A DNA stretch of 64,000 nt from Alphaproteobacteria bacterium (GTDB lineage Bacteria > Pseudomonadota > Alphaproteobacteria > SP197), in the NCBI GenBank assembly GCA_965213815.1, contig OZ243917.1:1626832-1690831 (forward strand). The letters are read 5' to 3'. The position numbers were made by a program, and so were the translations under genes. Below, in pieces: positions 5,752 through 59,076 of this stretch (positions are counted from its first letter, which is position 1; each line of letters starts with the position of its first letter). A model generated the notes under the pieces. The model ran no database searches, was not told where the DNA came from, and saw only the letters and a list, made by a program, of their open reading frames with translations.

Positions 5752-5790
5752 CCTTGGAGCGAACGTTTTTGTTCGACCCGAGGAGCCGTT

Positions 5791-8216: not shown

Positions 8217-8508
8217 ACGAAGGCGCTCTGCGTCGTTGATCTTCGGAAGTTCGTGTTCCTCTTGCCGATGCCTTGCCTTTCCACTCGCGGGTTCAAATGC
8301 GACGTCACACTGATGTGTGTCATGGATTTGAGTGACGCCGGGCCGACAGAATGGCCGGGACCTCATCCGCATCGGCGGCGGCACCGGGGCAGCCAATCCG
8401 TACACTGATCGAGATGCGCCTTGTGCACCGTTGTCGATGCTTGACATGGTTTCGGGGTTCACCGGGTGTCACTCCCCGCCAGGCTTCGCCGGCTTGCCCT
8501 TGCACCGG

Positions 8509-15120: not shown

Positions 15121-16524
15121 ATGCCAAGGACGAAGGGTATGCCACGACTGCCTGATACCGTCGCCTACTACGTCGAACCCCGCATGGCCCGTATCTTCGT
15201 TTTGGGGATCATCAGCGGGTTCCCCTGGGTCCTGATCGGCAGCAGCCTCAATCTCTGGCTCCAGGAGGACGGTCTTTCCCGCAGCACCATCGGCTGGGCC
15301 GGGCTCATCTTCGGCGTCTATGCCTTCAATTTTCTGTGGGCGCCGCTCGTCGACCGTATCCGGATTCCTGTGCTCACGGACTGGATCGGCCACCGGCGCG
15401 CCTGGATCGTCGTCCTCCAGGCGGTCATTCTGGCAAGTCTGGTCATCTGGAGCCTCGTCGATCCCGTGGCCAACCTTGCGGCGGTGATCGGCGTCGGTCT
15501 CGTCATCGCCATCGCCTCGGCGACCCAGGACATCACCATCGACGCCCTGAGGATCGAGCAGGTCGGCCCGGCAGAATCCGAGGCCATGGCCGCCGGTGCG
15601 GCGACGGCCGTGGTGGGCTGGTGGACCGGCTACAAGCTCGGCGGAATCGTCGCCCTCGAGACGGCCCAGCGCTTCCAGGATGCCGGCATTGCAAACTACT
15701 GGCAGATGACCTTCCTGGTGCTGGGAGCCGTGGTCATCGCCTGCAACATGGCGCTGATGTTCGTCTCCGAGGCCCCGGCCACCAACCGCGTCGAACGCCA
15801 GGCGGATGACGAGGAGGCACTGGCGCGCACGTTGCCCCGTCCGCTGGCCTGGCTCGGCGCCACCGTCGCCGGGCCGTTGATGAGTTTCTTCCGCAAGAAC
15901 GGCCTTGCCATCGCCCTTGCCATCCTCGGCTTCATCTTCCTTTTCAAGATCGGCGAGGCCTTCCTCGGGCGCATGTCGCTCGTCTTCTACAAGGAGGTCG
16001 GGTTCACCAAGTCGGACATCGCGCTCTATTCCAAGGGGCTGGGCTGGATCACGACGCTGGCCTTTTCCGTGCTGGGCGGCCTCCTTGCCATCCGCATCGG
16101 GCTCATCCGGGCGATGTTCGTCTCCGGTCTTGCCATGGCGGCGACCAACCTGCTCTTTGCCGCGCTGGCCTGGACCGGGCGTTCGGAACTTCTCTTCGGC
16201 GCCGCCGTCATCATGGACGACCTGACGAGCGCCTTTGCCACGGTGACCTTCGTTGCCTTCATCTCGATGCTGGTCGATCGCACCTACACGGCGACGCAGT
16301 ATGCCCTGATGGCCTCCATCGGCACCGCCGGGAGAACGCTCTTTGCCGCCTCCTCGGGCGAACTCGTCGACTGGCTCGACGGCGACTGGGGCGCCTTCTT
16401 CATCATCACCACCGTCATGGTGCTCCCCTCCCTCATCTGCCTCTTCCTCATCCGCCATCGCCTTGCCGACATGCTGGCCGGCGCCCGCGTGCGCCTCTTC
16501 ACGAAGGAGGCCGATTCCTCCTGA
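15121..16524 (+). CDS. ampG: AmpG-family MFS permease (muropeptide transporter). Motif FLWAPLVDR, 12-14 TM helices.
   Basis: Motifs in track ORF 14656..16524; the true start is MPRTKGMPRLPD at 15121. The 5' part of the track ORF is antisense to the cyclase. Confidence 0.75.
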   Translation: MPRTKGMPRLPDTVAYYVEPRMARIFVLGIISGFPWVLIGSSLNLWLQEDGLSRSTIGWAGLIFGVYAFNFLWAPLVDRIRIPVLTDWIGHRRAWIVVLQAVILASLVIWSLVDPVANLAAVIGVGLVIAIASATQDITIDALRIEQVGPAESEAMAAGAATAVVGWWTGYKLGGIVALETAQRFQDAGIANYWQMTFLVLGAVVIACNMALMFVSEAPATNRVERQADDEEALARTLPRPLAWLGATVAGPLMSFFRKNGLAIALAILGFIFLFKIGEAFLGRMSLVFYKEVGFTKSDIALYSKGLGWITTLAFSVLGGLLAIRIGLIRAMFVSGLAMAATNLLFAALAWTGRSELLFGAAVIMDDLTSAFATVTFVAFISMLVDRTYTATQYALMASIGTAGRTLFAASSGELVDWLDGDWGAFFIITTVMVLPSLICLFLIRHRLADMLAGARVRLFTKEADSS

Positions 16525-18849: not shown

Positions 18850-19139
18850 GAGGTAGCCGAAGCGTTTCATCTGCTCACCATGGTCCGCACAGATCCGCCG
18901 CACCTGCCCTCGCTCAGTTCCTTCCTCCACCCCCTGGAACAGATCCCGGTGCGGGGTATGTGCGCGCGCACTTTCGGCTGTGAAAGTGCCGTGATTCGAT
19001 CACATTGAGCAATCTCGGCGATCTTGCGCGAAGTCCGCCGAGGGGCTTGTTGTCATCTGGAAACTTCCACTCAAGTGTCCTCGCAGGGCCATCATGCGTA
19101 TGGCTCAGACCCCGCCTGCCGTGCGTCACGTAACGGGCC
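18850..19139 (-). pseudogene. Degenerate 3' remnant (about the last 95 codons, frameshifted) of a fourth sulfotransferase paralogue (...HDGPARTL..GLRARSPRLLNVIESRHF...QVRRICADHGEQMKRFGYLS). It is 5'-truncated by the ISAzo13 end at 19141.
   Basis: Hand translation of the minus strand. Homology to the C-termini of the three sulfotransferases at 47.7-59.1 kb. Confidence 0.45.
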
Positions 19140-19140
19140 T

Positions 19141-19233
19141 TAGGGCTCTCGCCAGAATAACTTGTCCTTCTTGGTGGGATCAGTTATCCCTGCTACCATG
19201 GATGGTATGGTTGACACGCTACGCTCCAAGTTT
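19141..19233 (+). mobile_element. Solo left end (about 93 bp: IRL plus first 24 transposase codons) of the ISAzo13-family IS that is complete at 28097-29406. It was truncated by insertion of the 2.4-kb IS.
   Basis: Near-identical to 28097-28190 (TTAGGGCTCTCGCC...ACGCTCCAAGTTT). Confidence 0.6.
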
Positions 19234-25236: not shown

Positions 25237-25472
25237 CCCTCCTTACCCACCAGTCACGACCGTCGCGGCGCCCATCGCTGTACGTGGGCGCCGGCGTGCG
25301 GCTGTCACGTCCGCAAAGGACGGGCCGAAGCCGCTCACGACGCCGCGAATCGGGTCAACCCCGGCAAGCAGACCGCACGTCAAATCGCCGAATCACACTC
25401 GGCGCAACCCAGTCCGGTCCTCATTCGCCCAGCGTGGGAAAGTCCTGTGGGAACATTGTATGGCCGCGGCAA

Positions 25473-25695
25473 TGATCGAGCCAACCTGTTCAGCCGCCTC
25501 GACGAGATGGGCGTCGGCTACGTGGGCGTAGCTCGCCGTGGTGCGGTGGCGGCGGTGCCAGAGCAGCTTGCCCACGAGGGGCAGGTTCTCGCCCGCCATG
25601 ACCGCCTGGCTGGCCGCCGTGTGGCGCAGATCGTGCAAGCGGAGCCTATCGAGAGACTCTTGCGCTGTAGCGATTTTCAGCGCCTCGGCCTGCCG
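25473..25695 (-). pseudogene. C-terminal catalytic fragment of a tyrosine integrase (LHDLRHT...LLGH...TTASYAHV). It belongs to the same family as the two intact integrases at 54.5-56.8 kb.
   Basis: R-H-R-Y region motifs. It continues the fragment at 27715-28094 across an IS insertion. Confidence 0.6.
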
Positions 25696-27714: not shown

Positions 27715-28094
27715 CTATCGAGCTTCGCATCTGCGCACGCTGTCCGCCAGCAGTTCGACAGTATCCAGATACCCCGGCCCTCGGCGTGGCGCGGAAACAG
27801 GAACGCGTCGGGATCGCGCGCGCCGGGCAGCGCCTCAATGAGCGCCCGCGCGGCCTCGCCGAGCGGCACCGCGCGCGGGCCGGTCTTCGAGTCTTCGAGT
27901 GTGATGGCGTCCCCGCCAATGTTGCGCCAGCGCAGATCGAGCACTTCGATGCGCCGGCAGCCGGTGAGTGCCAGCAGCCGGATCGCCGCGACGGTCTCGG
28001 GCCATTGGAAGCGCGCGCCCGAGCCGGGCCAGCTCGTCCATGTCGAGGAAGCGGGCGACCTGCTTCCTCGGGTTCTTCGCGATACCGAGACAGG
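27715..28094 (-). pseudogene. Middle portion of the same tyrosine integrase (GIAKNPRKQVARFLDMDELARLG ... LRWRNIGGDAITLEDSKTGPRAVPLGEAA...). It is interrupted upstream by ISAzo13 at 28095-28097.
   Basis: Hand translation of the minus strand. P4-type integrase core motifs. Confidence 0.6.
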
Positions 28095-28096
28095 GG

Positions 28097-29406
28097 TTAG
28101 GGCTCTCGCCTGAATAACTTGTCCTTTTTGGTGGGATCAGTTATCCCTGCTACCATGGATGGTATGGTTGACACGCTACGCTCCAAGTTTGTGGGGTTGC
28201 GCCCGGTTCTTGACGAACGCGCCCGGCGTTTGTGGGCGGCGACGGAAGCGCGCGCCATCGGGCGCGGCGGCATTGCGAGGGTGGCTGAGGCGACGGGCAT
28301 GTCGCGGGGCACTGTTCGGGCTGGTCTGAAGGAGCTTGCGTCCGGCGTGGTTGCCGAGGCTTCTGGCGAGGCGCCATCGGGGCGTGTGCGTCGACCGGGC
28401 GCCGGGCGCACGCGTGTGACGGAACTGGACCCGGACCTTGTGGTGGCGCTGGAGCGTCAGCTTGAGCCGGTGACGCGCGGTGATCCGGAGAGCCCATTGC
28501 GCTGGACATGCAACAGCGCCGCGCATCTGGCGGACCGGCTTAGGGCCGAGGGTCACCCGGTCAGCGAGCGCACGGTGAACCGGCAGTTGCATGCACTGGG
28601 ATACAGCCTTCAAGCCAACGCCAAGACACTGGAGGGGCGCCAGCATCCGGACCGGGATGCGCAGTTCCGCTGCATCGACCGCCGGGTGCGCGCCTTCCAG
28701 AGGATGGGCCAGCCCGTGGTGTCGGTTGATACCAAGAAGAAGGAAATCGTTGGCCAGTACCGCAATGGCGGCCGTGAATGGCGCCCCAAGGGTGAGCCTG
28801 AGGCCGTGAAGGTGCATGACTTCCCCGATCCGGACCTGGGCAAGGCCATTCCTTACGGGGTGTATGACCTCACCGCCAACGCCGGCTGGGTCAGCGTCGG
28901 CATCGACCACGACACGGCGACATTCGCCGTCGAGACCCTGCGCCGCTGGTGGCAGCACATGGGACACCCGCTCTACCCCGATGCCAGGCGCCTGCTCATC
29001 ACCGCCGACGGCGGCGGCTCCAACAGCAGCCGCAACCGGTTGTGGAAGCTCGAACTCCAGAAACTCGCCGATGAACTCGGACTGACCGTCTCGGTCGCCC
29101 ACTTCCCGCCCGGTACCAGCAAGTGGAACAAGATCGAACACCGCATGTTCTGCCACATCACACAGGACTGGCGCGGCAGGCCCCTCGTCAGCTACCAGGT
29201 GTCGTCAAGCTGATCGCAGCCACTACGACAGGCGCCGGCCTCATCGTACACTCAGACCTCGATGGCAACTCCTATCCGCTCGGGGTCAAGGTCACCGACA
29301 ATCAGATGGAAGACCTTGCCATACGAAGAAACCCCTTCCACGGCGAGTGGAACTACAGTCTGTCACCACGAACATAACGTACAATCTATTTTGGCGAGAG
29401 GCCTTA
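28097..29406 (+). mobile_element. ISAzo13-family insertion sequence, about 1.31 kb, with 14-bp imperfect IRs TTAGGGCTCTCGCC / GGCGAGAGGCCTTA.
   Basis: IRs read from the sequence. Internal ISAzo13-type transposase. Confidence 0.7.
28119..29377 (+). pseudogene. ISAzo13-family transposase. A frameshift near 29210 splits it into 28119..29213 and 29123..29377 (...VVKLIAATTTGAGLIVHSDLDGNSYPLGVKVTDNQMEDLAIRRNPFHGEWNYSL).
   Basis: Family motifs (LDERARRLWAA; C-terminal NPFHGEWNY). Two overlapping ORFs in the track. Confidence 0.6.
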
Positions 29407-41215: not shown

Positions 41216-41356
41216 TGCAAGTGGCTTCTGTGGTAGCGTCCGTAGCCGATGGCCTTCAACAGGGGATCCTTCGGCGGACGCGCCATGTCCGCACCATCGC
41301 CAGAAGGCCTTCGACAGTCGGTCGGGAATGCAAGTTCCCGGCAATCCGGAGTTGTC

Positions 41357-42298
41357 ATGACCATCCCATCCGTCCCTGCCCTCGAGGCTCTCCCAGCGGA
41401 GCGCAATCCGGCGATCGTTTACCTCGCAAGTCTGACTGCCGGTGAGGGACGGCGCTCGATGGCCTCGACGCTCTCTCAGCTCGCCGCCATGCTCGGTTGT
41501 AGTGATGCTGCGTCCTGCCCCTGGCACGAGCTGCGCCATCAGCACGTCGCTGCCCTTCGTGCTGTGCTGGCCGAGCGCTACGCGCCAGCCTCGGCGAACA
41601 AGGCCCTCGCCGCGATCCGCGGTGTACTCCGGGCGGCCTGGAGGCTGGAACTGATCCCGACCGAGTCCTATCACCGCGCCATCGACGTGCCGCTCGTCCG
41701 CGGCGCGCGCCTGCCTGCCGGCCGGTCCCTCGAGCCCGCCGAGATCCGGGCGCTGTTTTCCGCTTGTGCCGATGGCACCCCGGCCGGCGCCCGCGACGCC
41801 GCCGCCTTCGCCCTGCTGTTCGGCTGCGGCCTGCGCCGCGCCGAAGCGGTTGCAGTGGAGGTTGCCGACCACCACGCAGACACTGGCGCGATTCGAGTCA
41901 TCGGCAAGGGCAACCGCGAGCGAATCGTCTACGCTACCGGCGGTGCGAAGGCAGCCCTCGATGCTTGGCTGGCTCACCGCGGAGTCGCCGTGGCCGGCCC
42001 GATTCTCGCTCCGGTGTCGCACACCGGCGCCGTCGATGTCGGTCGCGGCATCACCCCGAATTCGCTGATGATGCGTCTGCGCAAGCGGTCCGAACAAGCC
42101 GGAATTGCCGCGTGCTCGCCGCACGACCTCCGCCGCTCGTTCGTGTCGGCAGCCCTTGAGGCCGGAGCCGATCTTGCCATGGTCCAGGCTCTTGCAGGCC
42201 ACGCCTCCCCGACCACAACCGCGCGTTACGACCGCCGCCCTGAATCTGCCAAGGCTGCCGCTGCGCGTCTTGTCCACGTTCCGTTTGCTGCGGTGTGA
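41357..42298 (+). CDS. Tyrosine site-specific recombinase, XerC/XerD-like (about 313 aa; RRAEAV ... HDLRRSF ... TTARYDR). It is divergent from SLP3.
   Basis: R-K-H-R-H-Y signature residues in the 349-aa ORF. The start is probably MTIPSVP. Confidence 0.7.
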   Translation: MTIPSVPALEALPAERNPAIVYLASLTAGEGRRSMASTLSQLAAMLGCSDAASCPWHELRHQHVAALRAVLAERYAPASANKALAAIRGVLRAAWRLELIPTESYHRAIDVPLVRGARLPAGRSLEPAEIRALFSACADGTPAGARDAAAFALLFGCGLRRAEAVAVEVADHHADTGAIRVIGKGNRERIVYATGGAKAALDAWLAHRGVAVAGPILAPVSHTGAVDVGRGITPNSLMMRLRKRSEQAGIAACSPHDLRRSFVSAALEAGADLAMVQALAGHASPTTTARYDRRPESAKAAAARLVHVPFAAV

Positions 42299-47535: not shown

Positions 47536-47752
47536 CGCTCTATGTGCTTGCGGCTCATCTTCAGACATCCGGACCTCGGCTAAGTTCAGATATGACAATT
47601 GCGTGGTGATGCTCTGTCGATGTTGTAGACGAATCTGAGGTTTGTTCCGGGGTAGACGGTCCAGGTCCGGTTGATCTGGCCGATCAGGGATTTTTCGGTC
47701 GCGTTGTTGGCCAGCCTGAGGACTTCGATCCTGACGATACCCTGTACTCCGG
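47536..47752 (-). mobile_element. Right-end remnant (about 217 bp: IR TTCAGACATCCGGACCTCGGC plus the last 50 or so transposase codons) of an IS related to the 19232-21602 element. It truncates the 3' end of sulfotransferase 1.
   Basis: IR and C-terminal peptide (...LANNATEKSLIGQINRTWTVYPGTNLRFVYNIDRASPRN) homologous to 21400-21602. Confidence 0.55.
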
Positions 47753-48586
47753 GGGAAGATAGCCAAAACGTTCCATCTGGACGCGGTGTTGGGAACAGAT
47801 CCGTTCCACCTGTTCGGGTGTCAGTTCCTGTCGCCAATGCCCGGCTGTGCCCCGTCGGAAGAACTTCTCCTGGGTAGGTGACTTCTCCTTAAAGCCCCGT
47901 TGATCCTCCTGACTCCTCAAGGCCTTGAACGAGGAATTCCTGATCGCCCGCAGAAGTCTTTGCCGGGATGGCTTCAGACCGAGAAACCGCGCCGTCGCCC
48001 CGAAGGTTCTCGAGGGAAGGTCCAGCATGTCCTCATAGCGCACGACGTGAAGGCGCGGATCAGGGTTTCCAGTCCAGCTCTCGACGTTCTGCGACCAGCT
48101 TCCAAGAATGATCCCGACGTTGTTCTTTGTCGGATCGTGCGGCGTTTCGAGGTTGTGGGTCGCCATGTGATCGATCGCCTCGTCGACATCGAATCCCATG
48201 AAATCGGCGAACGACAGGGCAATATCCAGAGGGTTTCGGACGATGTATATAGCACCGGATGTCACGGAAAGGTTGATGGCCGGATACCCTCTTATCGTCA
48301 TCAGCGCATTGTGCGTCTTGCAAAAGAGTGTGTATTTCTGCGCCTGTGCGATCAACTCGTTCACCCTTGGCCGCATGCTCGCCACATCCTTGGATGACCA
48401 CTCAGCGAGTGGTCTTTTGTCGAGCATTTGAAACCACATGAGCGCGCCATCGCTCTGGAAGAGTTCGCCCGCCATCTGGTTGACGTCAAACGCTCGCTCG
48501 CGGTTGTTGAAGAGGTTGTACAGGAATGCCCGCATCCAAGTGTTCCCCGATTTCGGGAAACTTGCGAGCCAGACAATGTTACCCAT
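47684..48586 (-). CDS. PAPS-dependent sulfotransferase paralogue 1 (5'-PSB motif SFPKSGNTW). Its last few codons are replaced by IS-derived sequence.
   Basis: Sulfotransferase P-loop motif. About 65% identity to paralogues 2 and 3. Confidence 0.7.
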   Translation of the reverse strand: MGNIVWLASFPKSGNTWMRAFLYNLFNNRERAFDVNQMAGELFQSDGALMWFQMLDKRPLAEWSSKDVASMRPRVNELIAQAQKYTLFCKTHNALMTIRGYPAINLSVTSGAIYIVRNPLDIALSFADFMGFDVDEAIDHMATHNLETPHDPTKNNVGIILGSWSQNVESWTGNPDPRLHVVRYEDMLDLPSRTFGATARFLGLKPSRQRLLRAIRNSSFKALRSQEDQRGFKEKSPTQEKFFRRGTAGHWRQELTPEQVERICSQHRVQMERFGYLPPEYRVSSGSKSSGWPTTRPKNP

Positions 48587-48653
48587 GGAATGCAGTCATA
48601 ATAAAGGGAGCGACCGCGAGGGCCGCTCCCTTCAACCCGTCCCGAAAGAGACC

Positions 48654-49658
48654 TCAGAAACTGATGCCGAGCGCGACACCGGCGAAGGTCGAGTCGTTGC
48701 CCGTGACATTGTTCGAGTCGCTGCCGACAGCGCCAGCAAGGCTGATACCTGGACCGAGGTTGTAATTGGCCAGCAGGCGGGCCAATTCGGCGTCGGTGTT
48801 CGCATCTTCCTGCTCCACGGCACCGAAGTTCGCGCTGACGGTCAGGTTGCCCATGCTGTAGCTGATACCGGCGTCGAATTGCACGAGGTCATCGCCACCT
48901 GCATCGTAGTCGGTTGTTCGGAAGGAACCGCCGACCGAGACATCGGACATCGAGACCACGACACCCATACTCATGTCTTCGGTCGTAGTATCAGCTGCGT
49001 TATCGTCCAGCGACGCGTAGCCGACCGAGAAGGCGACACCTGCATCACCGAACGATCCGTCATAGCGAATGCCAACGGACGCGACCTCATTGCCTTCGCT
49101 CTGGTCTGCCGGGCTGTTGCGGGCTTCCTCACCGGCTTCCGGTGCATAGGAAAGACCGAACTGGATCCCGTTGAACGACGGCGAGAAGTACATGATGGAT
49201 GCGGAATCGCCAGCGTCTACACCTGCGAACGTGCTCATCCAAGTCGCATTGCTAGAGCCTTCGAACGCACTACTGATGCCAGGAGAATATGCCCAGTACG
49301 GCGTGTTAAGACCGTAGAAGTACGTTGCATACGGCGCCGCCGTACCCATCTGGGCCGATGCCGCGTCGTCGTTGCCGATACGCAGCGTGCCGAACGAACC
49401 CTCGATGTAAGCGTAGGTCTCATCCATCTGATCGCTGGCTTGCTCGCCCTCAAGTTCCATGCGTACGCCGATCTCAAGGCCGCTGTCGAGCACAGTGCTG
49501 CCAGCAAAGCTGATTTCTACGTCGTTCGCGATGGAGATGTCGTCATTGTCGGGCGTGGCGTCGTTGTCGGAGACGGCGACACCCCAGTGCGAATTACCGC
49601 CAACACTGAGCGAGATTGGCTCGGCCATCATCTCATCGGCGGCCACACCAGTGGGCAC
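48654..49658 (-). CDS. Porin cassette 1 (Rhodobacter-type general porin, ends ...GISF). It lacks a start codon, RBS and signal peptide. Homology begins at the shared core CCACTGGTGTGGCCG (49640-49654).
   Basis: Porin similarity to 57111..58148. Hand translation upstream shows no signal-peptide coding. Confidence 0.65.
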   Translation of the reverse strand: MPTGVAADEMMAEPISLSVGGNSHWGVAVSDNDATPDNDDISIANDVEISFAGSTVLDSGLEIGVRMELEGEQASDQMDETYAYIEGSFGTLRIGNDDAASAQMGTAAPYATYFYGLNTPYWAYSPGISSAFEGSSNATWMSTFAGVDAGDSASIMYFSPSFNGIQFGLSYAPEAGEEARNSPADQSEGNEVASVGIRYDGSFGDAGVAFSVGYASLDDNAADTTTEDMSMGVVVSMSDVSVGGSFRTTDYDAGGDDLVQFDAGISYSMGNLTVSANFGAVEQEDANTDAELARLLANYNLGPGISLAGAVGSDSNNVTGNDSTFAGVALGISF

Positions 49659-50019
49659 GTCCCGGTAGCCAACACATTGATATGGTGCGGCATCAGGTCA
49701 GCAGAGATTGGGGGGATGAGAGAATCCAGCCCACTAGTTTCCCGGGCCTGTGACTGATGACCATGGGCCAGAAGTTGACGATGCCATCGATCGCTGGACC
49801 GGAAGTCGGGATCAGCGACTCCTTGCTCACCTCGAATGTCGCATGTCCTCGGGAAGGCAGAAGCACCTCACGCACATGCACCACACGAAGCAGAACGAGG
49901 CCGGAACTTCTTGAAAGTCTCCGACTCTACCCTCCGGTTCAGCCGGCACTTTCGCCGGCGCCAAGGTGAACGAGTCACTCATCTGCACAAGACGACCTTG
50001 TCACACATACCGTCAACAC

Positions 50020-51588
50020 TCAGGCCTGTTCGCCTCTGACACTCAACAGATTTCTCTCGGCCTGTCCGAAGACAATGCCCAAGAGATGAACGGGCTCGCC
50101 ATGGTCACGATACGTCTCAGCGTAGCCCCGCTCCCGCATCTGGCGGATTGCCTCTTCCAGAGCCGCCCCAACCTCCCTATCGGCCATCTTGAACTCCATG
50201 ACGAATACCTGGCCGTCCAGAAACACCACCACGCCGGCCCGGCCACGGGATGATGCCTCCTCCACGCGAAGGCCCACATCGATGGCCCTGAAACACATGT
50301 AAAGGAGGCTCGCATACCATGCCTCGTACCGCGCAAGATCCCCATGACCTTGCCACGGGTACGGGATCCCCGAGATATACGAACGAAGCCTCTTTCCGAA
50401 CCCTTCGAAGTCGTTTGCCTCCAGAAACCCACAGAGTTCCCTGCCGTGGTCCGATGTCTCCTTCGCCGCGGCTCCCAAGTGTCCCAAGAGACCGTCGTTC
50501 AGGCTCCACTGTACTTCGAAATTGGGATAGTCCAGCCTGTAGAGCGTTCGGGGACCTTGACTTTCCTCTGCCGTGATCGTCAGGTAGCCTGCCTGAAAGA
50601 GAAGTGCGTCCACGGAGATATCGTCCACATCAAATGTCGCCATCAACCGCTCGTCCGCCAACCGGTTCTCAAGATCGATCGGGTTCACGTGCTTCTCCAT
50701 CAGAAGACGGTAGAGAAACTCCGGTGAACCGGTCTCGTACCACCACGGCCGGAAGGTTCTGCGGTCAAACAACAGCAGCACGTCAAAGGGGTTGTAGACT
50801 TTCTCACTGCCCAACCAGTGATAACCGTTGTACCAGCGCCGGATCTCGTCACGGTTGAGCTCGTCAAGTTCCACCGCAAATGTTCCATCAAGATCCTTCT
50901 CCGTGTAGCCGCAGAGGGTCGCGTATCGCGGGTCAAGGCTGATGTCCTTCAGATTGTTGAGGCCCGAAAACAGACTGACCTTGGAGAACATGCTCACCCC
51001 GGTCACAAGCACGAAGCGGACGTGTTCGGCGCTGCCCTTGATGATTCCGTAGAGACCTCTGAGTGCATCCCGATTCGCCTTAGCAAGGGACGGATCTTCC
51101 AGCACATCCAGAATTGGCTTGTCGTACTCGTCCACCAGAACCGCGACCCGCTGACCGGTGGCATGGTGGAGGCGGTCCAGGAGATCCAACAAACGCACTG
51201 GACCGGTACACTCAGGTGAGGGTGCAAGGCCGGCGTTGCGTTCGATGATCGTCAACTGGCCGATAATGCTACGCTCGACATCCTCGGGCTCGTTGTATCT
51301 TCCGTCAAAACTCAGCCGGACTACTGGATGCTTCACGGACCAGTCCCAGTGGCGGTGGATGTCGAGCCCTCGGAACAGCTCCTCTTTGCCTTCAAAAAGG
51401 GATTTCAGCGTGTCCACCAGCAAGCTCTTGCCGAATCGACGCGGACGGGAAAGAAAATAGTGCCGTCCCTCGTCCACCAGACGCCGAATGATCGGCGTCT
51501 TGTCGACATAGTAGCAGTCTTCTTCCCGAATCGTTCGGAAATCCTGGATCCCGATCGGGAGTCGACGGTGCTCCACAGCTCTCTCCAT
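50020..51588 (-). CDS. AAA-ATPase-like (PF09820-type N-terminus: GIQDFRTIREEDCYYVDKTPII...FLSRPRRFGKSL) fused to a PD-(D/E)xK nuclease family-9-like C-terminus (DUF1703-type).
   Basis: N-terminal and C-terminal motifs in the 522-aa ORF. Confidence 0.6.
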   Translation of the reverse strand: MERAVEHRRLPIGIQDFRTIREEDCYYVDKTPIIRRLVDEGRHYFLSRPRRFGKSLLVDTLKSLFEGKEELFRGLDIHRHWDWSVKHPVVRLSFDGRYNEPEDVERSIIGQLTIIERNAGLAPSPECTGPVRLLDLLDRLHHATGQRVAVLVDEYDKPILDVLEDPSLAKANRDALRGLYGIIKGSAEHVRFVLVTGVSMFSKVSLFSGLNNLKDISLDPRYATLCGYTEKDLDGTFAVELDELNRDEIRRWYNGYHWLGSEKVYNPFDVLLLFDRRTFRPWWYETGSPEFLYRLLMEKHVNPIDLENRLADERLMATFDVDDISVDALLFQAGYLTITAEESQGPRTLYRLDYPNFEVQWSLNDGLLGHLGAAAKETSDHGRELCGFLEANDFEGFGKRLRSYISGIPYPWQGHGDLARYEAWYASLLYMCFRAIDVGLRVEEASSRGRAGVVVFLDGQVFVMEFKMADREVGAALEEAIRQMRERGYAETYRDHGEPVHLLGIVFGQAERNLLSVRGEQA

Positions 51589-52202
51589 CGATCACCGGAT
51601 GCAACCTTACCACACCCGGTTCGCAGGCATGCCATCAGGGTCGTGGTCTTTCTCGAGCAACACGTCACGGCTCCGGCATCCGTTCGGGGCTGCCCACCGC
51701 CATATCGAAGTCGACACCAGCGCGGATCACGAAGCTCGACACCGTGAGCACCACAACGGCGGGCGTCCACAGACCCACCACCTATCGCCTGTTATCACGG
51801 TCACGCTTGGCGGTGCGCGACGCACAACTCGCGGAGAAACGTGGATCGGCTGCTCCTTCGTTCCAGAGGACTTTCACCTCCAACCTTCCGCCACTTCGCT
51901 TGGCACGTGTCTCTACCGCGACCGATCCTCCAAGAACATGGGACTCGGGCGAAAGTCCATGCCTGGCTCGCTGTGAGAGAGGAACCACAGCGCATGGGAG
52001 CAGCAATTCACTCCGGCGATCTTGAGATGGATGGAGCGCTTGCCACCCGGTTTCTTGCCGGCTTGGCAGGCTGTTCGACCATCAGGCCCAGACGCCTTGA
52101 TCACGTGCTGCAAGGCAAATGCGCACAACGTGTTTGACCGTCCTCGAGACAGTATTAGGTGTCATGCGCATCCTGCAGCCCAGCCAAGCGTTTGCAGTTC
52201 AT

Positions 52203-52430
52203 TCACCCGGGCCAACGGATCATGAGACCAAGAACTGCCACGGCGAATGCCAAGAGCCCTGCAATCGTCACAATCAACCGAGTTTCCCTCTTGGCGGCTT
52301 CCGCATCCCGCTTGGCGTTATCCTCGGCCAGTCGGGCAATATCGGTCTTGTACTCGGCCTGCATAGTCTTCATGCGTTCCTCCAGGACGGCCAGCTTCGC
52401 CGCCATTTCCACGGTGCCTGGGTCACTCAT
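52203..52430 (-). CDS. Small coiled-coil protein with a C-terminal TM helix (MSDPGTVEMAAKLAVLEERMKTMQAEYK...IAGLLAFAVAVLGLMIRWPG). Function unknown.
   Basis: Track ORF 52203..52487; start at an internal Met. Confidence 0.3.
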   Translation of the reverse strand: MSDPGTVEMAAKLAVLEERMKTMQAEYKTDIARLAEDNAKRDAEAAKRETRLIVTIAGLLAFAVAVLGLMIRWPG

Positions 52431-52499
52431 GTGTAACAGGGTAGCCGATGCGTCACGCGTTGGCGAACTCCCCTGATCAAGGCACAACGGAGCAGGCTC

Positions 52500-53345
52500 T
52501 CAGCTGTCCTCAGAGACGTAGCCGAAGCGTTTCATCTGCTCGCCATGAGTCTCACAGATCTGCCTGATCTGGCTCTCGCTCAGTTCATCCTTCCAAGTCC
52601 CGACCTTACCGCGCCGGAAGAATCTCTTCTGATGCTCCGACCTCTCCTTGAACCCGCCAGTGGCTTCTTGACTTTGAAGGGTCTTGAACGAGGAATGGCG
52701 GATGGCCCGCAACAACCTCTGACGCGACGGCTTCAGACCGAGGAACCGCGCTACTCCCCCGAAGGTCGCCAACGACTTTTCGACCATGTCCTCATACCTT
52801 ACCACATGGAGACGCTCACTCGCCCTGCCGGTCCAGCTCTCGACGTGCTGCGACCAGCTCCCCGACATGATCGAGACATTGTTGCGCTCCGGGTCGTGGG
52901 GCATCTCTAGGTAGTCGGTCGCCATGATCTCGATCGCCTGGTCAAGAGCGATTCCCATGAAGTCCGCCGAGGAGGAGGCCACATCGAGGGGATTACGTAC
53001 GATATAGATGGCACCGGATGTCACGCCCAGATTGATGGTCGGATGCCCTTGCACCGTCATCAGTGCATTGTGTGTTTTGCAGAATATGGATCTCGGCTGT
53101 CCCTGGGCGATCAGATTACAGACCTTCGGCCGCATGGCGGCGACATCCTCGGACGACCATTCGCTCACCGGTCGCTTGTCCAGCATCCTGAACCACATCA
53201 GCGATCCGTCGCTCTGTAGGATCTCGCCCTGCATCCTGTCCAGGTTAGCCGGCCGCGCCTCGTTGTGGAAGAGATTGTGAAGGAACGCCCGCATCCACGT
53301 GTTGCCGGATTTCGGATAGCTGGCCAGCCAGACGATGTCGCCCAT
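52500..53345 (-). CDS. Sulfotransferase paralogue 2 (intact, 281 aa).
   Basis: SYPKSGNTW motif. Full-length relative to paralogue 3. Confidence 0.75.
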   Translation of the reverse strand: MGDIVWLASYPKSGNTWMRAFLHNLFHNEARPANLDRMQGEILQSDGSLMWFRMLDKRPVSEWSSEDVAAMRPKVCNLIAQGQPRSIFCKTHNALMTVQGHPTINLGVTSGAIYIVRNPLDVASSSADFMGIALDQAIEIMATDYLEMPHDPERNNVSIMSGSWSQHVESWTGRASERLHVVRYEDMVEKSLATFGGVARFLGLKPSRQRLLRAIRHSSFKTLQSQEATGGFKERSEHQKRFFRRGKVGTWKDELSESQIRQICETHGEQMKRFGYVSEDS

Positions 53346-53415
53346 GCACTAAACCCCAACGGAAAGGAGCGGTCACAAAGGACCGCTCCTCACAACATTA
53401 GACCTATGACTTCAA

Positions 53416-54390
53416 TCAGAATGAGACCAAGAACGCCACCGCACCGAATGAGGTATCCTCATTGCTCGATGGGGAATCACGTCCGACGACACCGGCAACA
53501 TTAACGCCTGGACCAAGATTATATGTCGCCATCAGACGGGAGAAGTCAGTATCAACATTTGCGCTATCCTGGCTCTTGTTGCCAAAATTGGCGCTGATGG
53601 CCCAAGGGCCTTCACCATACATGGCGCCGACATCGTACTGGACCACATCGTCCACTCCATCCATGTCCGTATCATTCGACCTATAGGACCCACCGGCAGA
53701 CACTCCAGACATGGTCACTACCAAGCCTGCGTTCCAGTCAGTCACAGTCCGATCGGCCGCACCACCTGCTGCTGCCACGTCCGTGCTGGCATAACCGGAA
53801 GCAATCGTGACACCAGCATCACCGACAGCGCCGTCATAGCGCAGACCCACGGAGTACACATCATTACCTTCGTCAGAATAAACGGTATTTGACTGCGCTT
53901 CTGTTCCGGCCTCGGGAGCATATGACGCACCAAATTGGATACCGTTGATTACAGGCGAGAAGTACAGCAAGGATGCACCGCCAGCGCCTTCGCCTGCAAA
54001 TGTTGAATGCCACTCTCCACTGAGATGTCCAGACCAAAATGGAGTGTTGATACCATAGAAGTATGTGGCATAGGGAGCAGCTGTCGACATCTTGTACGAA
54101 GCAGTGTCCTCATTGCCTATACGAATTTCTCCGAAGGAACCGCTGAGATAGGCGTACTTCCCGTCACCCTGATCCTCACTTTCTTCACCTTCGATATCAA
54201 TTCTCACACCGACTTCGAGACCACTGTCAAGAACCGTAGATCCCGTGAACACAAGCAAGATGTCATTCGAGATTGCGATGTCATCCTTGTCGGCTTGCGT
54301 GTCGCTGTCGACAATTGCCACGCCCCACATTGACCGACCGCCAACGCTGAGCGAGATCGGTTCGGCCATCATCTCTTCGGCAACGGCCAC
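53416..54390 (-). CDS. Porin cassette 2. It is silent, with no signal peptide or start context; an upstream in-frame stop lies in AT-rich non-homologous DNA. Homology begins at the core CCACTGGTGTGGCCG (54385-54399).
   Basis: Hand translation of the 5' junction. The porin body is intact and ends ...FLVSF. Confidence 0.65.
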   Translation of the reverse strand: MAVAEEMMAEPISLSVGGRSMWGVAIVDSDTQADKDDIAISNDILLVFTGSTVLDSGLEVGVRIDIEGEESEDQGDGKYAYLSGSFGEIRIGNEDTASYKMSTAAPYATYFYGINTPFWSGHLSGEWHSTFAGEGAGGASLLYFSPVINGIQFGASYAPEAGTEAQSNTVYSDEGNDVYSVGLRYDGAVGDAGVTIASGYASTDVAAAGGAADRTVTDWNAGLVVTMSGVSAGGSYRSNDTDMDGVDDVVQYDVGAMYGEGPWAISANFGNKSQDSANVDTDFSRLMATYNLGPGVNVAGVVGRDSPSSNEDTSFGAVAFLVSF

Positions 54391-54517
54391 ACCAGTGGGC
54401 GTATACGCTATATTAACTATCTGTTAACGTGCTTATAATGCTCCCTGCACAATTGCAATGTCGGGAGGTGCATCATCGGATCTTCCCATGCCTGCAATTT
54501 CAGCGAAGGGAGGACCC

Positions 54518-55642
54518 ATGGCCAAGACCAAACTCACTGAAGCCTGCGTAAGGGCACTGCGGCCCCGCAAGAGTGTCCGAGACATTCGGGACTCGCAGCT
54601 CAGAGGCTTCGGTGTGCGCGTCTATCCATCTGGCTGCAAACGATACTTCATCCACGTTCAGCACGAGGGACATCGTGTTTGGAAAATCGTCGGTGATGCT
54701 GCTGCCCTCCGGCCTGCCGAAGCACGGGATCGGGCGAAGACCATGATGGCGGCGACACGCAAGGGAACCTCCCCTGCGACGGATCGCATACTGTTCGAGG
54801 CGGTGGCCGAAGAAACCTTCCACCGGTACGGAAGAAACAACTGGAAGCCCCGTACTTTCAAGGTCAATCGGTACTGCCTGGAAAACCAGATTCTGCCATG
54901 GTTCAAGGGGCGTCAGATCGCCGGTATCACCGATGGAGACGTGCAGGAGTGGTTTGCGTCGCTGCATGCGACGCCAGTAGCGGCCGATCGCGCTGCACCG
55001 GTTCTCTCTGTCATTATGACCTGTGCCGAAACATACGGATACAGGTCCGCGGAAAGTAATCCCTGCAAGGGCATCAAGCGCTACCGGAGGCAGGAAAGGG
55101 AACGCTTCATGTCGGAGGAAGAGTTACGCCGCTTGGGGGTCGCGCTGAAGAAGTATGAGGACACAGGCCCCATGTGTGTGGCCATCATTCGACTGTTGCT
55201 GCTGACCGGCTGCCGCAAATCGGAGGTGGTGACACTTAAGTGGAAGAACTATCGGGACGGACATGTTCACCTCAGCGACTCCAAGGCGGGTCCGCGGATG
55301 GTCTGGCTTTCGACTTCGGCCCGCCGGATCCTGGATGGCATCCGCAGGGAATCCACGTGGGTCTTCCCATCACCAAGAACTGATAAGTCACTGACTACCG
55401 CACCTGTTGAGCGCTTCTGGCACCGTATTCGATCGGAAGTGGGACTACAGGACGTGCGCCTTCACGACCTGCGTCACACTTACGCCAGCATTGCTGTCAT
55501 GCAAGGTGAGAGTGTTCTAACCGTCGGCCGGCTGCTTGGTCACAACAATCCAGAGACAACTCTCAAGTACACCCATCTAGCGCACGGCAAGGTAGTGGAG
55601 GCTGCTCGGGCCATGGGCGATGTTCTTGGAGGGTCTGCGTGA
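54518..55642 (+). CDS. Tyrosine integrase/recombinase 1 (P4-type; ...VRLHDLRHTYASIAVMQGESVLTVGRLLGHNNPETTLKYTHL). It lies inside the putative invertible segment.
   Basis: Integrase core-binding and catalytic motifs. Track ORF 54458..55642; the start is probably MAKTKLTEA. Confidence 0.75.
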   Translation: MAKTKLTEACVRALRPRKSVRDIRDSQLRGFGVRVYPSGCKRYFIHVQHEGHRVWKIVGDAAALRPAEARDRAKTMMAATRKGTSPATDRILFEAVAEETFHRYGRNNWKPRTFKVNRYCLENQILPWFKGRQIAGITDGDVQEWFASLHATPVAADRAAPVLSVIMTCAETYGYRSAESNPCKGIKRYRRQERERFMSEEELRRLGVALKKYEDTGPMCVAIIRLLLLTGCRKSEVVTLKWKNYRDGHVHLSDSKAGPRMVWLSTSARRILDGIRRESTWVFPSPRTDKSLTTAPVERFWHRIRSEVGLQDVRLHDLRHTYASIAVMQGESVLTVGRLLGHNNPETTLKYTHLAHGKVVEAARAMGDVLGGSA

Positions 55643-56772
55643 TGAATCAAAGGACGAAACTGACAGAGTCACGTATCAGAAGACTCAAGCCGGCCGATCG
55701 CGAGTACACCATCCGCGACACTGTCGTGCCAAGCCTTGGCGTACGGGTTCACCCCTCAGGAGGAAGCAGCTACGTACATTTCAGCAATGGCACGAAGGTG
55801 TCGCTTGGTCCTACCATGCACCTGGAAGTTCGGGAAGCTCGAGTCCAGTGCCTTACACTGCTGGTCGACGGGCGGCCGAGAAAGGATCCGGTTCCCCTGT
55901 TCCAAGACTTCACCATGCATGAATGGCGGAACACGTGGATCCATCGGAGCAAGCCTGCAACGATCCAATGGAGGGAGAAGTGTCTGAAACGCCAGTTGTT
56001 CCCAGCATTCGCGGCTTGTCGTTTGGACAGGATCACGACTGCGATGGTTCAACAGTGGTTCGACAACTACAGCAGGACCGCTCCGGGCGGAGCCAATCAC
56101 TGCCTCAAGGTCCTTCGCCAGATCTTCAACCATGCTATCTCCTGCGACCACATCACATCGAATCCGGCGAGGAATGTCAGACCCAACCGCAGGCGGAAAC
56201 TCACACGCTTCCTTTCGAGTGAAGAGCTTGGACGATTGCATTGTGTGCTCGACCAGCATGACCGCGAGTCACCTCACAGGCTGTCGCAGCGTCAACAGAT
56301 CGATATCATTCGCCTGCTCCTTCTGACCGGCTGCCGCAAGAGCGAGATCGTCCGTCTTCGCAGGGAGGAAGTGTCCGGTGATTGTCTCCACCTGGTGGAC
56401 AGCAAGACGGGACCACGTACGGTGTTTCTGAACGAAGAGTCGAGGGTCATCATCGACCGCCACATCTCAGGCCACAGCGCCTTCCTGTTTCCGTCGCCCA
56501 GAGATCCCGGGCGCCCTCTCCATGGCGAGCTTGCGCTCTGGTATACAATTCGCAGGCAAGCGGGCATCGAGGATGTACGCCTTCATGATCTGCGTCATAC
56601 GTATGCCAGCCATGCCGTCATGCAGGGAACACCTCTGCCGGTCGTGTCACGTCTGCTTGGACACTCACGACCAACCATGACGATGCGGTATGCACACATG
56701 GGCGACCGCGAAACCGAGGAGGCTGCGGAGCGCATCGGAGCCGTGATCGCCGGAATGCTGGACATCGGATGA
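55639..56772 (+). CDS. Tyrosine integrase/recombinase 2, a paralogue of recombinase 1. It overlaps recombinase 1 by 4 bp.
   Basis: Motifs ...VRLHDLRHTYASHAVMQGTPLPVVSRLLGHSRPTMTMRYAHM. Confidence 0.75.
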   Translation: MMNQRTKLTESRIRRLKPADREYTIRDTVVPSLGVRVHPSGGSSYVHFSNGTKVSLGPTMHLEVREARVQCLTLLVDGRPRKDPVPLFQDFTMHEWRNTWIHRSKPATIQWREKCLKRQLFPAFAACRLDRITTAMVQQWFDNYSRTAPGGANHCLKVLRQIFNHAISCDHITSNPARNVRPNRRRKLTRFLSSEELGRLHCVLDQHDRESPHRLSQRQQIDIIRLLLLTGCRKSEIVRLRREEVSGDCLHLVDSKTGPRTVFLNEESRVIIDRHISGHSAFLFPSPRDPGRPLHGELALWYTIRRQAGIEDVRLHDLRHTYASHAVMQGTPLPVVSRLLGHSRPTMTMRYAHMGDRETEEAAERIGAVIAGMLDIG

Positions 56773-57110
56773 CAAGCGCTGTCCGGGAAACACTTGATGG
56801 GCGCCGCAGGTGATCGGCGGTACTCCGGGATGACCGCCGACCGCGAGGCTCCCAGTGATAAGACCAAGCAACCTTTCCAGAAATGCAACTGGACCTTGCT
56901 TGAGTGCCCTCTGATCGGGCCGCGGAAGCTAACGCCAACCGGCCAGAGGTTATGACTGTGCACAGCCTCTGTTGCAATAGTGCAACACCTGTTGACGTTA
57001 CACCATACATGCCTTTGACGGAACAGTGGTATCACGCTACCTAACCTGCGGCCAGCACCCGTTGTGCGGGCAATTCCTTGATTAGGATCCTACATGAAAG
57101 GAAGTGAACA

Positions 57111-58148
57111 ATGAAAAAGGCCCTTATGGGTACCACTGCCCTTGTGGCGGCCGCGGTGACCACTGGTGTGGCCGTTGCCGAAGAGATGATGGCCGAGCCG
57201 ATCTCGATGACCATTGGCGGCAGGTCACACTGGGGTGTGGCGATGTTTGACAATGAGGCAAGGTCGAACGATGACGATGTCCGGATTTCGAACGATGCTC
57301 TGCTGACGTTCTCGGGTTCAACGGTTCTTGACAGCGGCCTTGAAATCGCCGTGCGCATCGAGATTGAGGGCGAGCAGTCCGGTGATCAGGGCGATGCCAA
57401 ATATGTCGACATTTCAGGCAGTTTTGGCGAAATCCGTATTGGTAATGACAGCCCTGCCGGCAAGAAGTTGGCTACGACCGCACCCTACGCTACGTACTTC
57501 TATGGGATCAATGACAACTATTGGGCGCAGTCAGTGTCAAGCGTTGGCTCTAGTCCCTGGATGGACACGTACGCGAACGCCGGTGCAGGAGATTCCGCGT
57601 CGCTCCTGTATTTCTCGCCTGTGTTGAACGGATTCCAGTTTGCCGTTTCCTATGCGCCGGAAGCTGGTGCAGAGGCACAGTCGGCCACTGCGAGTACTGC
57701 TGATGGAAATGATGTGGTCTCTGTCGGTCTGCGTTATGACGGCGCCTTCGGCGATACCGGCGTTACCGTTGCTGCCGGATACGCGAGCAATGACGCGACC
57801 ACGGCAACCACTTCGGAGATGGCTGGCGGGGTAGTCGTCTCCATGTCGGGTGTGTCACTTGGTGGCTCCATGAGTGTGATGGACGACGATGCGGGCAGCG
57901 ACGACCTGACGCAATTCGACCTTGGCATCAAGTATGGCGAAGGTCCGTGGTCAGTCAGTGCGAACGTGGGTAGTCAGCAAGATGATGATGCTATGCTCGA
58001 CAATGACTTCGCGCGGCTGCTCGCCAACTACAATCTCGGCCCTGGCATCAACATTGCCGGCGCAATCGGTGTCGACTCACCCAACGCGGGTGCCAACGAC
58101 GGACAGGATACTTCCTTCGCAGGTATTGCGCTGGGGGTCAGTTTCTGA
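57111..58148 (+). CDS. Porin, the expressed copy. It has an RBS (GGAAGTGAACA-ATG), a signal peptide MKKALMGTTALVAAAVTTGVAVA and a C-terminal F. The core site CCACTGGTGTGGCCG lies at 57160-57174, inside the signal-peptide codons.
   Basis: Gram-negative porin features. Two paralogues elsewhere. Confidence 0.8.
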   Translation: MKKALMGTTALVAAAVTTGVAVAEEMMAEPISMTIGGRSHWGVAMFDNEARSNDDDVRISNDALLTFSGSTVLDSGLEIAVRIEIEGEQSGDQGDAKYVDISGSFGEIRIGNDSPAGKKLATTAPYATYFYGINDNYWAQSVSSVGSSPWMDTYANAGAGDSASLLYFSPVLNGFQFAVSYAPEAGAEAQSATASTADGNDVVSVGLRYDGAFGDTGVTVAAGYASNDATTATTSEMAGGVVVSMSGVSLGGSMSVMDDDAGSDDLTQFDLGIKYGEGPWSVSANVGSQQDDDAMLDNDFARLLANYNLGPGINIAGAIGVDSPNAGANDGQDTSFAGIALGVSF

Positions 58149-58230
58149 CCATCAGACCGATACTTGCTTTTATGTTCTCTGGAGCGGCCCTTGTGGCCGC
58201 TCCCTTTTCTTCCAGGGCATTGAAGACGCC

Positions 58231-59076
58231 ATGGGCGACATTGTCTGGCTGGCCAGCTATCCGAAATCAGGCAACACGTGGATACGCGCGCTTCTTCACA
58301 ACCTCTTTCGGAACTGGAGCGACCCTGTCGACGTCAACAGTATGCACGGAGACCTCTCCCAGAGTGACGGCATGCTCGCGTGGTACCGGATGCTGGACAA
58401 ACGCCCCTGCCAGGAGTGGAGTTCCGAAGACGTGGCGCGCATGCGCCCCAAGGTAGACGCACTGATTGCCAAGACATCGCCAGGGTCCATTGTCTGCAAG
58501 ACCCACAACGCACTGCTCACGACACGCGGCTGTCCGACCATCAATCTGGAGGTGACATCCGGCGCAATCTACATAGTGAGAAACCCGCTGGATGTAGCCT
58601 CCTCGTTCGCTGACTTCCTGGGAGTTGACCTGGACAAGGCCATTGAATTCATGGGTACGGATTATCTGGAGACACAGAGCGATCATTCGCTCGACAATGT
58701 TCAGATATTGCTTGGAAGCTGGTCGCAGCATGTCAAGAGCTGGACAGGTAGACCCAACCGTCAGCTTCACGTGATTCGCTACGAAGACTTGCATGAGGAT
58801 CCGACTCGAACATTGAGACGCCTGGCGCGGTTCCTTGGACTGAAGCCGTCGCGGCAGAGATTGCTGCGTGCAATCAGGAACTCGTCGTTCAAGGTCATGC
58901 AGGGTCAGGAGAAGAGACAGGGCTTCAAGGAACGCTCCCCCTTTCAGCAACGCTTCTTCCGTCGCGGCAAGGCCGGGTCCTGGAAGGGCGAACTGAGCGA
59001 AAGCCAGGTCAGGCGGATTTGCGAAGACCATGGCGAACAGATGGAGCGCTTCGGCTACCTGCCCGAAGGATCCTGA
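58231..59076 (+). CDS. Sulfotransferase paralogue 3, co-transcribed downstream of the expressed porin.
   Basis: SYPKSGNTW motif. Start at MGDIVW, which is internal to track ORF 57922..59076. Confidence 0.8.
   Translation: MGDIVWLASYPKSGNTWIRALLHNLFRNWSDPVDVNSMHGDLSQSDGMLAWYRMLDKRPCQEWSSEDVARMRPKVDALIAKTSPGSIVCKTHNALLTTRGCPTINLEVTSGAIYIVRNPLDVASSFADFLGVDLDKAIEFMGTDYLETQSDHSLDNVQILLGSWSQHVKSWTGRPNRQLHVIRYEDLHEDPTRTLRRLARFLGLKPSRQRLLRAIRNSSFKVMQGQEKRQGFKERSPFQQRFFRRGKAGSWKGELSESQVRRICEDHGEQMERFGYLPEGS

Follow-up and report, generated by a model that had tools for sequence, protein, structure and literature searches.

The 64-kb stretch of alphaproteobacterial DNA analysed here (positions 1,626,832 to 1,690,831 of contig OZ243917.1, GenBank assembly GCA_965213815.1; hereafter the window) contains three copies of a Porin_4 gene, each with the same short core sequence at its 5' end. 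Our analysis suggests a shufflon, in which programmed DNA inversion connects a single expression site to one of three alternative cassettes, and we put the probability of this reading at about 0.78. Between the inverted core copies lie the tyrosine recombinase genes int1 and int2 and the only segment with a presumed promoter, ribosome-binding site (RBS), ATG and signal-peptide codons of the one complete porin gene.

A search of the window for the 15-mer CCACTGGTGTGGCCG gave three exact sites and no further ones when up to two mismatches were permitted, and each site lies at the 5' end of a Porin_4 gene (Table 1). The initial annotation had placed two of these copies correctly, at 49640-49654 (minus strand) and 57160-57174 (plus strand), and the remaining one was a base off, its actual position being 54384-54398 (minus strand). 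It had also described a homology breakpoint at one nucleotide, and this was borne out when the copies were compared with the core as anchor: identity was 100% across all three cores, whereas the 100 nucleotides (nt) upstream of the complete copy showed 14-18% ungapped identity to either of the truncated copies, which is the random level. A gradual decay of homology upstream was looked for in the same comparison, and an abrupt stop was found. The upstream sequences had been called unrelated, which is true of the complete copy versus the truncated ones. The two truncated copies, however, share two extra bases (GC) 5' of the core, giving a perfect run of 17 nt, and both carry the weak motif TAWCARTnnnTTR approximately 18-29 nt upstream of it; BLAST detected no significant colinear homology between their upstream sides. 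Downstream of the core, the near identity over about 45 bp that had been reported was seen only between copies 2 and 3, with 37 perfectly matching nt followed by 86% identity over the next 50, whereas copy 1 has a 3-bp deletion directly after the core. The porin bodies proved more divergent than the previous estimate of about 70-80%: pairwise identities were 60-63% at the nucleotide level in codon alignments and 58-61% at the amino acid (aa) level, and only local BLAST segments reached 70-74%. As had been noted, the core encodes T-G-V-A of the signal peptide, or (T)-T-G-V-A, near its end.

To examine the conservation of the core, we surveyed 21 sites in 10 sources, of which 17 were tabulated column by column; the other four, in loci L086 and L087, have the same core. 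The pattern C-N-ACTGGTGTGG (positions -2 and +1 to +10) was invariant in all 17 tabulated sites, and position +11 was C in 16 of them. Third codon positions +3, +6 and +9 never varied in this set, whereas +12, +15, +18 and +21 did. Three frozen synonymous positions with variable neighbors point to a constraint on DNA rather than on protein. Position -1, a synonymous Thr position, was C, G or T in different genomes but equal in the partner sites of one genome, a match that amounts to approximately one independent covariation event. Position -3 was A in all expression sites (8/8) and mostly another base in silent sites, the silent site of L086 also having A, and position +12 can differ between partners. 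Because -3 and +12 can differ between partner sites, the exchange must fall within the 13-bp core.

Outside the core, expression sites and silent sites have different left flanks. The flank GCGGCCGCGGTGA was present in six of the eight expression sites found, and those of L086 and L087 were off by 1-2 nt. Silent sites share the element A-n-C-A-R-T-nnn-T-T-R at -29 to -18 (among 13 sites, A at -26 was always present, C at -27 in 12, and T at -20 and at -19 in 11-12), and it is present also at silent sites that do not adjoin an int gene. At the expression site the position of this element is occupied by signal-peptide codons, and there are thus two classes of site. In addition, CAATWGTK elements occur in inverted orientation near both inner ends of the smaller predicted invertible segment (54448-54455 and 56975-56982). 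This octamer is not enriched in the window (3 found, 3.2 expected), and it is only its placement at both inner ends that counts, which is suggestive. The left-flank motif and the CAATWGTK elements are candidate accessory or arm-type sites.

Each core leads into a two-gene cassette in which the porin gene is followed by a Sulfotransfer_1 gene: cassette 1 at 47684-49654 (minus strand), cassette 2 at 52500-54398 (minus strand) and cassette 3 at 57160-59076 (plus strand). Cassettes 1 and 2 form a direct repeat, inverted relative to the complete copy. All three porins match Porin_4 above the gathering score (E = 1e-40 to 1e-45) and have ...SF C-termini, and a signal peptide is present on copy 3 only. 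When the segment 57111-57159 was joined in silico to cassette 1 or cassette 2 at the core, an uninterrupted full-length porin resulted in both cases. Across the loci tested, nine of ten complete silent cassettes were intact and ended in ...SF/NF, the silent copies of L086 and L087 were intact too, and the ratio of nonsynonymous to synonymous substitutions (dN/dS) was 0.17-0.31 in the seven pairs with estimable dS. These data indicate that the silent cassettes are maintained and are not decaying relics. Copies 1 and 2 had previously been regarded as truncations; they are instead intact silent cassettes that lack a promoter and a signal peptide, each with its own sulfotransferase gene. The porin family as a whole has approximately 120 proteins; some are full length and share an identical signal peptide, and the others, annotated from internal starts, lack it. 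No relatives of the porin were encoded on PLSDB plasmids. The sulfotransferases match Sulfotransfer_1 above the gathering score, have an N-terminal PKSGNTW phosphate-binding loop, and are closest among solved structures to cytosolic aryl/steroid sulfotransferases (SULTs) and to the glycopeptide sulfotransferases Teg12 and StaL.

Both int1 and int2 have a Phage_integrase domain in which the catalytic R, K, HxxR, H and Y are all kept. The region upstream of the expressed porin is strongly conserved in the window, L001, L002, L082, L083, L085 and L086, and is confined to porin loci; the approximately 300 bp before the porin ATG are absent from all other int loci. This region also contains a perfect palindrome that hardly varies among the expression sites, a possible operator or accessory site for a recombinase. 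An Rfam search of the expression-site region gave no match, and the fold obtained with RNAalifold had covariation in just 2 of 64 pairs and hence gives no support for an RNA structure. A BLAST search for an int1 remnant upstream of cassette 1 revealed no significant colinear homology.

The same layout was found in at least eight other genomes or contigs (L001, L002 and L082-L087). The order in L001, L086 and L087 is sulfotransferase and porin genes (minus strand), int1, int2, porin and sulfotransferase genes (plus strand); L002 has this order plus a second module with decayed int genes. Decayed int genes lie between the expressed and the silent porin in L082 and L083, L085 is partial (the end of int2, expression site, cassette and flank), and L084 is an array of four silent long-porin cassettes. 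The recombinase pair is located between the sites at the same position in five genomes, with integrase identities of 64-77%, and of the nine silent cassettes in loci with a known expression site, eight are inverted relative to that site. A metagenome scan for the junction of signal peptide and core returned two contigs only (L082 and L083), which are informative on architecture and not on same-strain switching. The relatives are mostly metagenome-assembled genomes (MAGs), and we take their isolate names to point to sponge microbiomes.

Some of these loci have additional features. The L084 array (1057-8217 and 19985-21128) has at least four silent long porins of approximately 450-470 codons, with no sulfotransferase gene; each of these has the core seen in the window and, to its left, 50 nt of conserved flank. 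The 21 kb fetched contained no expression site. In L002, a second copy of the region upstream of the expression site, without a signal peptide, and a decayed second int pair were detected (15872-16195 and 18946-19853), and in L087 there are IS66 and DDE_Tnp_1/DruA insertions inside the module (3441-4919 and 7530-9704). Both of these loci are rearrangement-prone.

Comparison of the loci with one another provided evidence for exchange at the core. L088 has an orthologue of por3 and ST3 (90.8% nt identity over 1,626 nt) whose alignment with the window begins at 57162. This orthologue is preceded by a silent-type flank, 92-95% identical to the flanks of L082 and L083, and L088 and L083 are 94% identical over 150 nt upstream of the core versus 66% downstream of it. 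In L085, an orthologue of por2 (86% nt and 84% aa identity) is fused to the signal peptide, and its homology to the silent cassette of the window ends at 54396. The nearest relative of por1 (77% nt identity) is the expressed copy of L001, and porin bodies with no more than 58-79% identity to the por2 query carry the identical signal peptide. The loci have a common flank (a xanthine/uracil permease gene and beyond) that is 87-90% identical. In L001 and L002 the silent/int1 side of the module faces this flank, whereas in L085, L086, L087 and the window the expression site does. We also considered a 5-kb alignment of the window with L002, starting at the core, as evidence for cassette orthology and rejected it: the porin part is only 65% identical, the signal is carried by the flank (89%), and the orientation argument alone stands. 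At the level of sequence comparison, these relationships indicate that exchanges at the core occurred repeatedly during divergence of these genomes, a history that does not give their present rate.

We propose the following model. The expression site comprises the presumed promoter, 5' untranslated region (UTR), RBS, ATG and the first 16 signal-peptide codons and ends at the 13-bp core C-N-ACTGGTGTGGC, and the translationally coupled int1 and int2 are on the same segment. One cassette is joined to the expression site, and the other two, inverted and without start codon and signal peptide, are for that reason not exported. A recombinase-mediated crossover in the core between the expression copy (plus strand) and a silent copy (minus strand) would invert 2.8 or 7.5 kb and fuse the signal peptide in frame to another porin body; with the crossover at the end of the signal peptide, the whole mature porin would be exchanged. 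The exchange is presumably catalysed by int1 and int2 and would take place at appreciable frequency today. Cells of one population would then have different outer-membrane channels and, if the sulfotransferase gene is co-switched with the porin as we suppose, probably different sulfotransferase activities. The benefit might be surface variation, by which cells would evade recognition by phages or a host. The proposal of the initial annotation, a site-specific crossover site for the two integrases, is thus supported by comparative evidence and not proven, the recombination itself being deduced from that comparison.

Several observations weigh against this model. Both orientations and switched cassette states were seen between genomes only, and the exact chimeric proteins expected after inversion were absent from a collection of 15 billion proteins. 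An exact look-up of int1, with both start variants, found no other assemblies of this species, which has one genome on record. Some differences between genomes, such as the por2-type cassette beside the permease flank in L085, are not producible by inversion alone. Clear dyad-symmetric recombinase-binding arms could not be defined around the core, and a sigma-70 consensus scan of the expression-site region gave no promoter match. The 37-nt perfect repeat of cassettes 2 and 3 could also support RecA-dependent inversion. Co-switching of the sulfotransferase gene is uncertain because a strong hairpin lies between the porin and sulfotransferase genes; a homologous hairpin follows por1 at 48603-48629. 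Finally, the usual role of the recombinase pair looks like island integration rather than inversion.

This last point comes from a search with int1, which yielded thousands of homologues, several per genome. Among 81 loci fetched via int1 relatives, most were int1-int2 pairs without flanking repeats, beside defence-like genes, among them TIR-NACHT, SIR2 and a C5 methylase. Overlapping int1 and int2 genes co-occurred in more than 40 loci, and Xer models scored far below their cut-offs. Inverted repeats were sought around 40 other int1-int2 pairs and none were found in alphaproteobacterial island-type loci, and the idea that the pair is an invertase in general was dropped on that account. The pair is not a classic tRNA-targeting island integrase either, as no more than 2 of 29 such loci had a tRNA gene immediately before int1. 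In alphaproteobacterial MAGs (L003-L043), overlapping int1-int2 pairs are present several per genome, beside TIR-NACHT, SIR2, C5-methylase or giant Calx-beta genes and free of flanking inverted repeats, which has the look of an island module with two integrases.

Arm-less homologues of int1 and int2 (51-57% identity) were also detected between inverted DUF1156/D12-methylase genes, which are similar to DISARM DrmMI, in L044, L045, L046, L048 and L050 (approximately 6-15 kb each). These loci belong to MAGs of Acidobacteriota, Vicinamibacteria, Bryobacterales and Longimicrobiales and have internal repeat segments up to 96-98% identical. They are probably, to judge by these repeats, methyltransferase-specificity shufflons. 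No core comparable to that of the porin loci was found in them, and their homology boundary falls where two complete genes, both with a start of their own, encode the N-terminal part. Programmed inversions in this gene class have been confirmed with long reads (PMC9881135), which counts in favor of the inversion reading of the porin locus.

An alternative explanation is that the locus is an evolutionary scar, in which duplicated cassettes undergo occasional RecA-dependent recombination or gene conversion of the pilE/pilS type at the conserved 5' end of the mature porin, and the integrases are mobile-element bystanders between divergent porin operons. In its favor, the length of the 37-nt perfect repeat would suffice for occasional RecA events, the int pair mostly occurs with islands, the layout persists where no intact recombinases are found locally (decayed int genes in the second module of L002, L082 and L083), and variation within a population was not observed. 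However, cassette 1 shares only 15 nt with the expression site before an indel, which is too short for efficient RecA exchange, and the left boundary falls at the same nucleotide in 21 sites. The frozen synonymous positions among variable neighbors imply a DNA-level site, silent sites have their own conserved left-flank motif, and the pair keeps its position in five genomes although the integrases have diverged to 64-77% identity. We consider this explanation unlikely.

It is also conceivable that silent cassettes in direct orientation, such as cassettes 1 and 2 or the tandem array of L084, are excised as circles via their cores and re-inserted at the expression core as in integrons, besides or instead of inversion. 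In favor of this are the 17-nt identical core of cassettes 1 and 2, which repeat each other directly, and the three silent cassettes in direct tandem in L084, all of which have both the core and a conserved left flank. Expression-type and silent-type sites also form two classes, and cassette positions relative to the flank differ between genomes beyond the reach of inversion alone. Nevertheless, wherever an expression site could be recognised, the silent partner closest to it was inverted, as inversion requires, no circular or tandem arrangement proximal to the expression site was found, and integron-integrase models reached 31-38 bits against cut-offs of at least 265 (attC-like structures were not searched for), which makes this route very improbable. 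Least probable of all is that the core is an island attachment site, in which case an int1-int2 element would have integrated where a porin gene encodes its signal peptide and would have displaced the 3' parts of that target gene, now seen as truncated copies. It would fit with int1 being a P4-type integrase with an arm-binding domain, with relatives of the pair that border defence islands, and with the replacement end for a split gene that integrative elements often carry. Integration, however, leaves direct repeats and gene parts on the same strand, whereas here the cores are inverted and each is on a complete, intact, outward-facing mature-porin open reading frame (ORF). Moreover, every genome has the promoter and signal peptide on the side of the site where the int genes lie, no int element adjoins cassette 1, and only recombinases and expression signals, with no cargo, lie between the sites.

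Within the inversion-switch model, a more elaborate version joins several of these threads, and as a whole it is doubtful. A pair of arm-domain (P4-type) integrases, acting heteromerically and having relatives that normally serve defence islands in this same set of genomes, might have been domesticated as a shufflon invertase with its crossover site in signal-peptide codons. The two classes of site would permit only productive exchanges, and a flip would swap a matched channel and cytosolic sulfotransferase, that is, a module of uptake and modification specificity and not just an antigen. Direct-repeat cassettes might in addition move in an integron-like manner.

Table 1. Features of the porin inversion locus (positions refer to the window)
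Feature	Position	Strand	Description
ST1	47684-48586	-	Sulfotransfer_1, cassette 1
por1 body	48654-49639	-	silent; intact 332-codon frame from core to ...GISF stop
Core of silent cassette 1	49640-49654	-	17-nt perfect direct repeat with cassette 2 core
Left-flank motif of silent site 1	49670-49681	-	TATCAATGTGTT; same motif as silent site 2
Predicted invertible segment B	49655-57159		7,505 bp; flip would lead to por1 expression
AAA-ATPase_like/PDDEXK_9 gene	50020-51588	-	separates the two silent cassettes; carried along in the larger invertible segment
ST2	52500-53345	-	Sulfotransfer_1, cassette 2
por2 body	53416-54383	-	silent, without ATG and signal peptide; intact 326-codon frame from core to ...LVSF stop
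Core of silent cassette 2	54384-54398	-	adjoins upstream side of int1; 37-nt perfect inverted repeat with expression-site copy
Left-flank motif of silent site 2	54414-54425	-	TAACAGATAGTT; 18-29 nt from core; candidate accessory or arm-type site
Predicted invertible segment A	54399-57159		2,761 bp; int1, int2, promoter, RBS, ATG, signal-peptide codons; flip would change expression from por3 to por2
int1	54518-55642	+	tyrosine recombinase with N-terminal Arm-DNA-bind_3; 374-aa start with GGAGGA RBS; longest ORF from 54458
int2	55639-56772	+	paralogous tyrosine recombinase, 39% identical to int1; start overlaps int1 stop by 4 bp
Upstream region of expression site	56773-57110	+	338 bp; presumed promoter and 5' UTR
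Perfect palindrome	56970-56987	+	TGTTGCAATAGTGCAACA; approximately 180 bp upstream of core; nearly invariant across all expression sites
RBS	57097-57104	+	AAAGGAAG; before por3 ATG
por3	57111-58148	+	sole complete porin gene (Porin_4); ATG, RBS, signal peptide MKKALMGTTALVAAAVTTGVAVA, then EE...
Core at expression site	57160-57174	+	conserved 13-mer CCACTGGTGTGGC at 57160-57172; within T-T-G-V-A signal-peptide codons
GC-rich hairpin and T-run	58181-58203	+	between por3 and ST3; possible attenuator or terminator
ST3	58231-59076	+	Sulfotransfer_1, cassette 3

Several other genes and fragments were detected around the cassettes. A homologue of the AAA-ATPase_like/PDDEXK_9 gene (80% nt identity) is located inside the porin cassette array of L084 (14455-16011), where Transposase_31/DUF4351 genes (Rpn-like PD-(D/E)XK) alternate with the cassettes, so that genes of nuclease families recur between cassettes. 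Between the AAA-ATPase_like/PDDEXK_9 gene of the window and ST2, the segment 51662-51874 (minus strand) gave a sub-threshold Rfam match to group II intron D1-D4 (23 bits versus a gathering score of 49, E = 0.002). Elsewhere in the window there are short C-terminal sulfotransferase fragments in mutually inverted orientation, int1/int2-like fragments and a further integrase-like ORF, at 18847-18909 (minus), 21395-21466 (plus), 25456-25662 (minus), 27792-28116 (minus) and 41249-42298 (plus). These are possibly debris of earlier modules.

If the switch is active, a general porin would undergo phase or antigenic variation through cassette inversion in Alphaproteobacteria. Uncultured symbionts would in this way vary the surface they expose, with possible consequences for escaping phages and for not being recognised or digested by a host. 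That each porin is always paired with a eukaryote-like sulfotransferase of its own may point to a functional link between the two. A compact 13-bp site and a two-recombinase module should make the system amenable to in vitro work. It should also be noted for annotation that 'partial' porin genes in these genomes would be silent cassettes and not pseudogenes.

Inversion of surface-lipoprotein genes occurs in the Mycoplasma loci vsa/HvsR of M. pulmonis, vsp of M. bovis and vpma/Xer1 of M. agalactiae. The mba locus of Ureaplasma is a comparable inversion locus (PMC3047005). As in the window, these loci have a single expression site with a promoter and a 5' end that encodes a signal sequence, promoterless silent genes, a tyrosine recombinase gene in the locus, and a short site at or near the coding 5' end that swaps the expressed body. 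They differ in that their hosts are wall-less Mollicutes, the cargo is lipoprotein and there is a single recombinase, whereas here a Gram-negative alphaproteobacterium has a beta-barrel porin with a sulfotransferase and a P4-type integrase pair inside the invertible segment.

The shufflon of R64 and other IncI plasmids uses the Rci recombinase and 19-bp sfx sites, with pilV as the target. It resembles our locus in its multiple inversion, in a constant N-terminal part joined to alternative C-terminal segments, and in asymmetric sites of which one arm and the spacer are conserved. However, its single Rci is encoded outside the invertible segments, it varies the adhesin tips of a plasmid pilus, and its segments are nested and adjacent rather than whole-gene cassettes; target and site sequence set the locus described here apart from Rci/sfx. 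In the fim switch of E. coli, FimB and FimE flip fimS, an ON/OFF promoter element with 9-bp repeats. Here, too, two paralogous tyrosine recombinase genes are found beside an invertible promoter element that controls a surface structure, but fim has no cassette exchange, and its recombinases are encoded outside the element and act separately. A likeness to XerC/XerD at dif (PMC2731167) is that a single asymmetric site could be served jointly by a pair of paralogous tyrosine recombinases. Heteromeric action of int1 and int2 is, however, suggested only by gene overlap and strict co-occurrence, and int1 has an arm-binding domain, which Xer proteins do not.

A further parallel is the SusC/SusD outer-membrane protein shufflon of Bacteroides fragilis, which a survey of programmed inversions, citing its refs 38-39, places among gene-altering ones (PMC9881135). 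As far as it is described there, it shares with our locus two-gene cassettes led by an outer-membrane beta-barrel gene, one fixed promoter and 5' end, and tyrosine-recombinase inversion at intragenic repeats; it belongs to another phylum, and its barrel is a TonB-dependent transporter whereas ours is a general porin. The words porin and sulfotransferase have 0 occurrences each in the main text of this survey, and a literature search for a porin or sulfotransferase shufflon found no paper describing one. Most likely, the locus belongs to a known kind of surface-variation device with new cargo (a general porin together with a sulfotransferase), and it is also set apart by its host (Alphaproteobacteria represented mainly by MAGs) and by an overlapping pair of P4-type integrase genes within the invertible segment.

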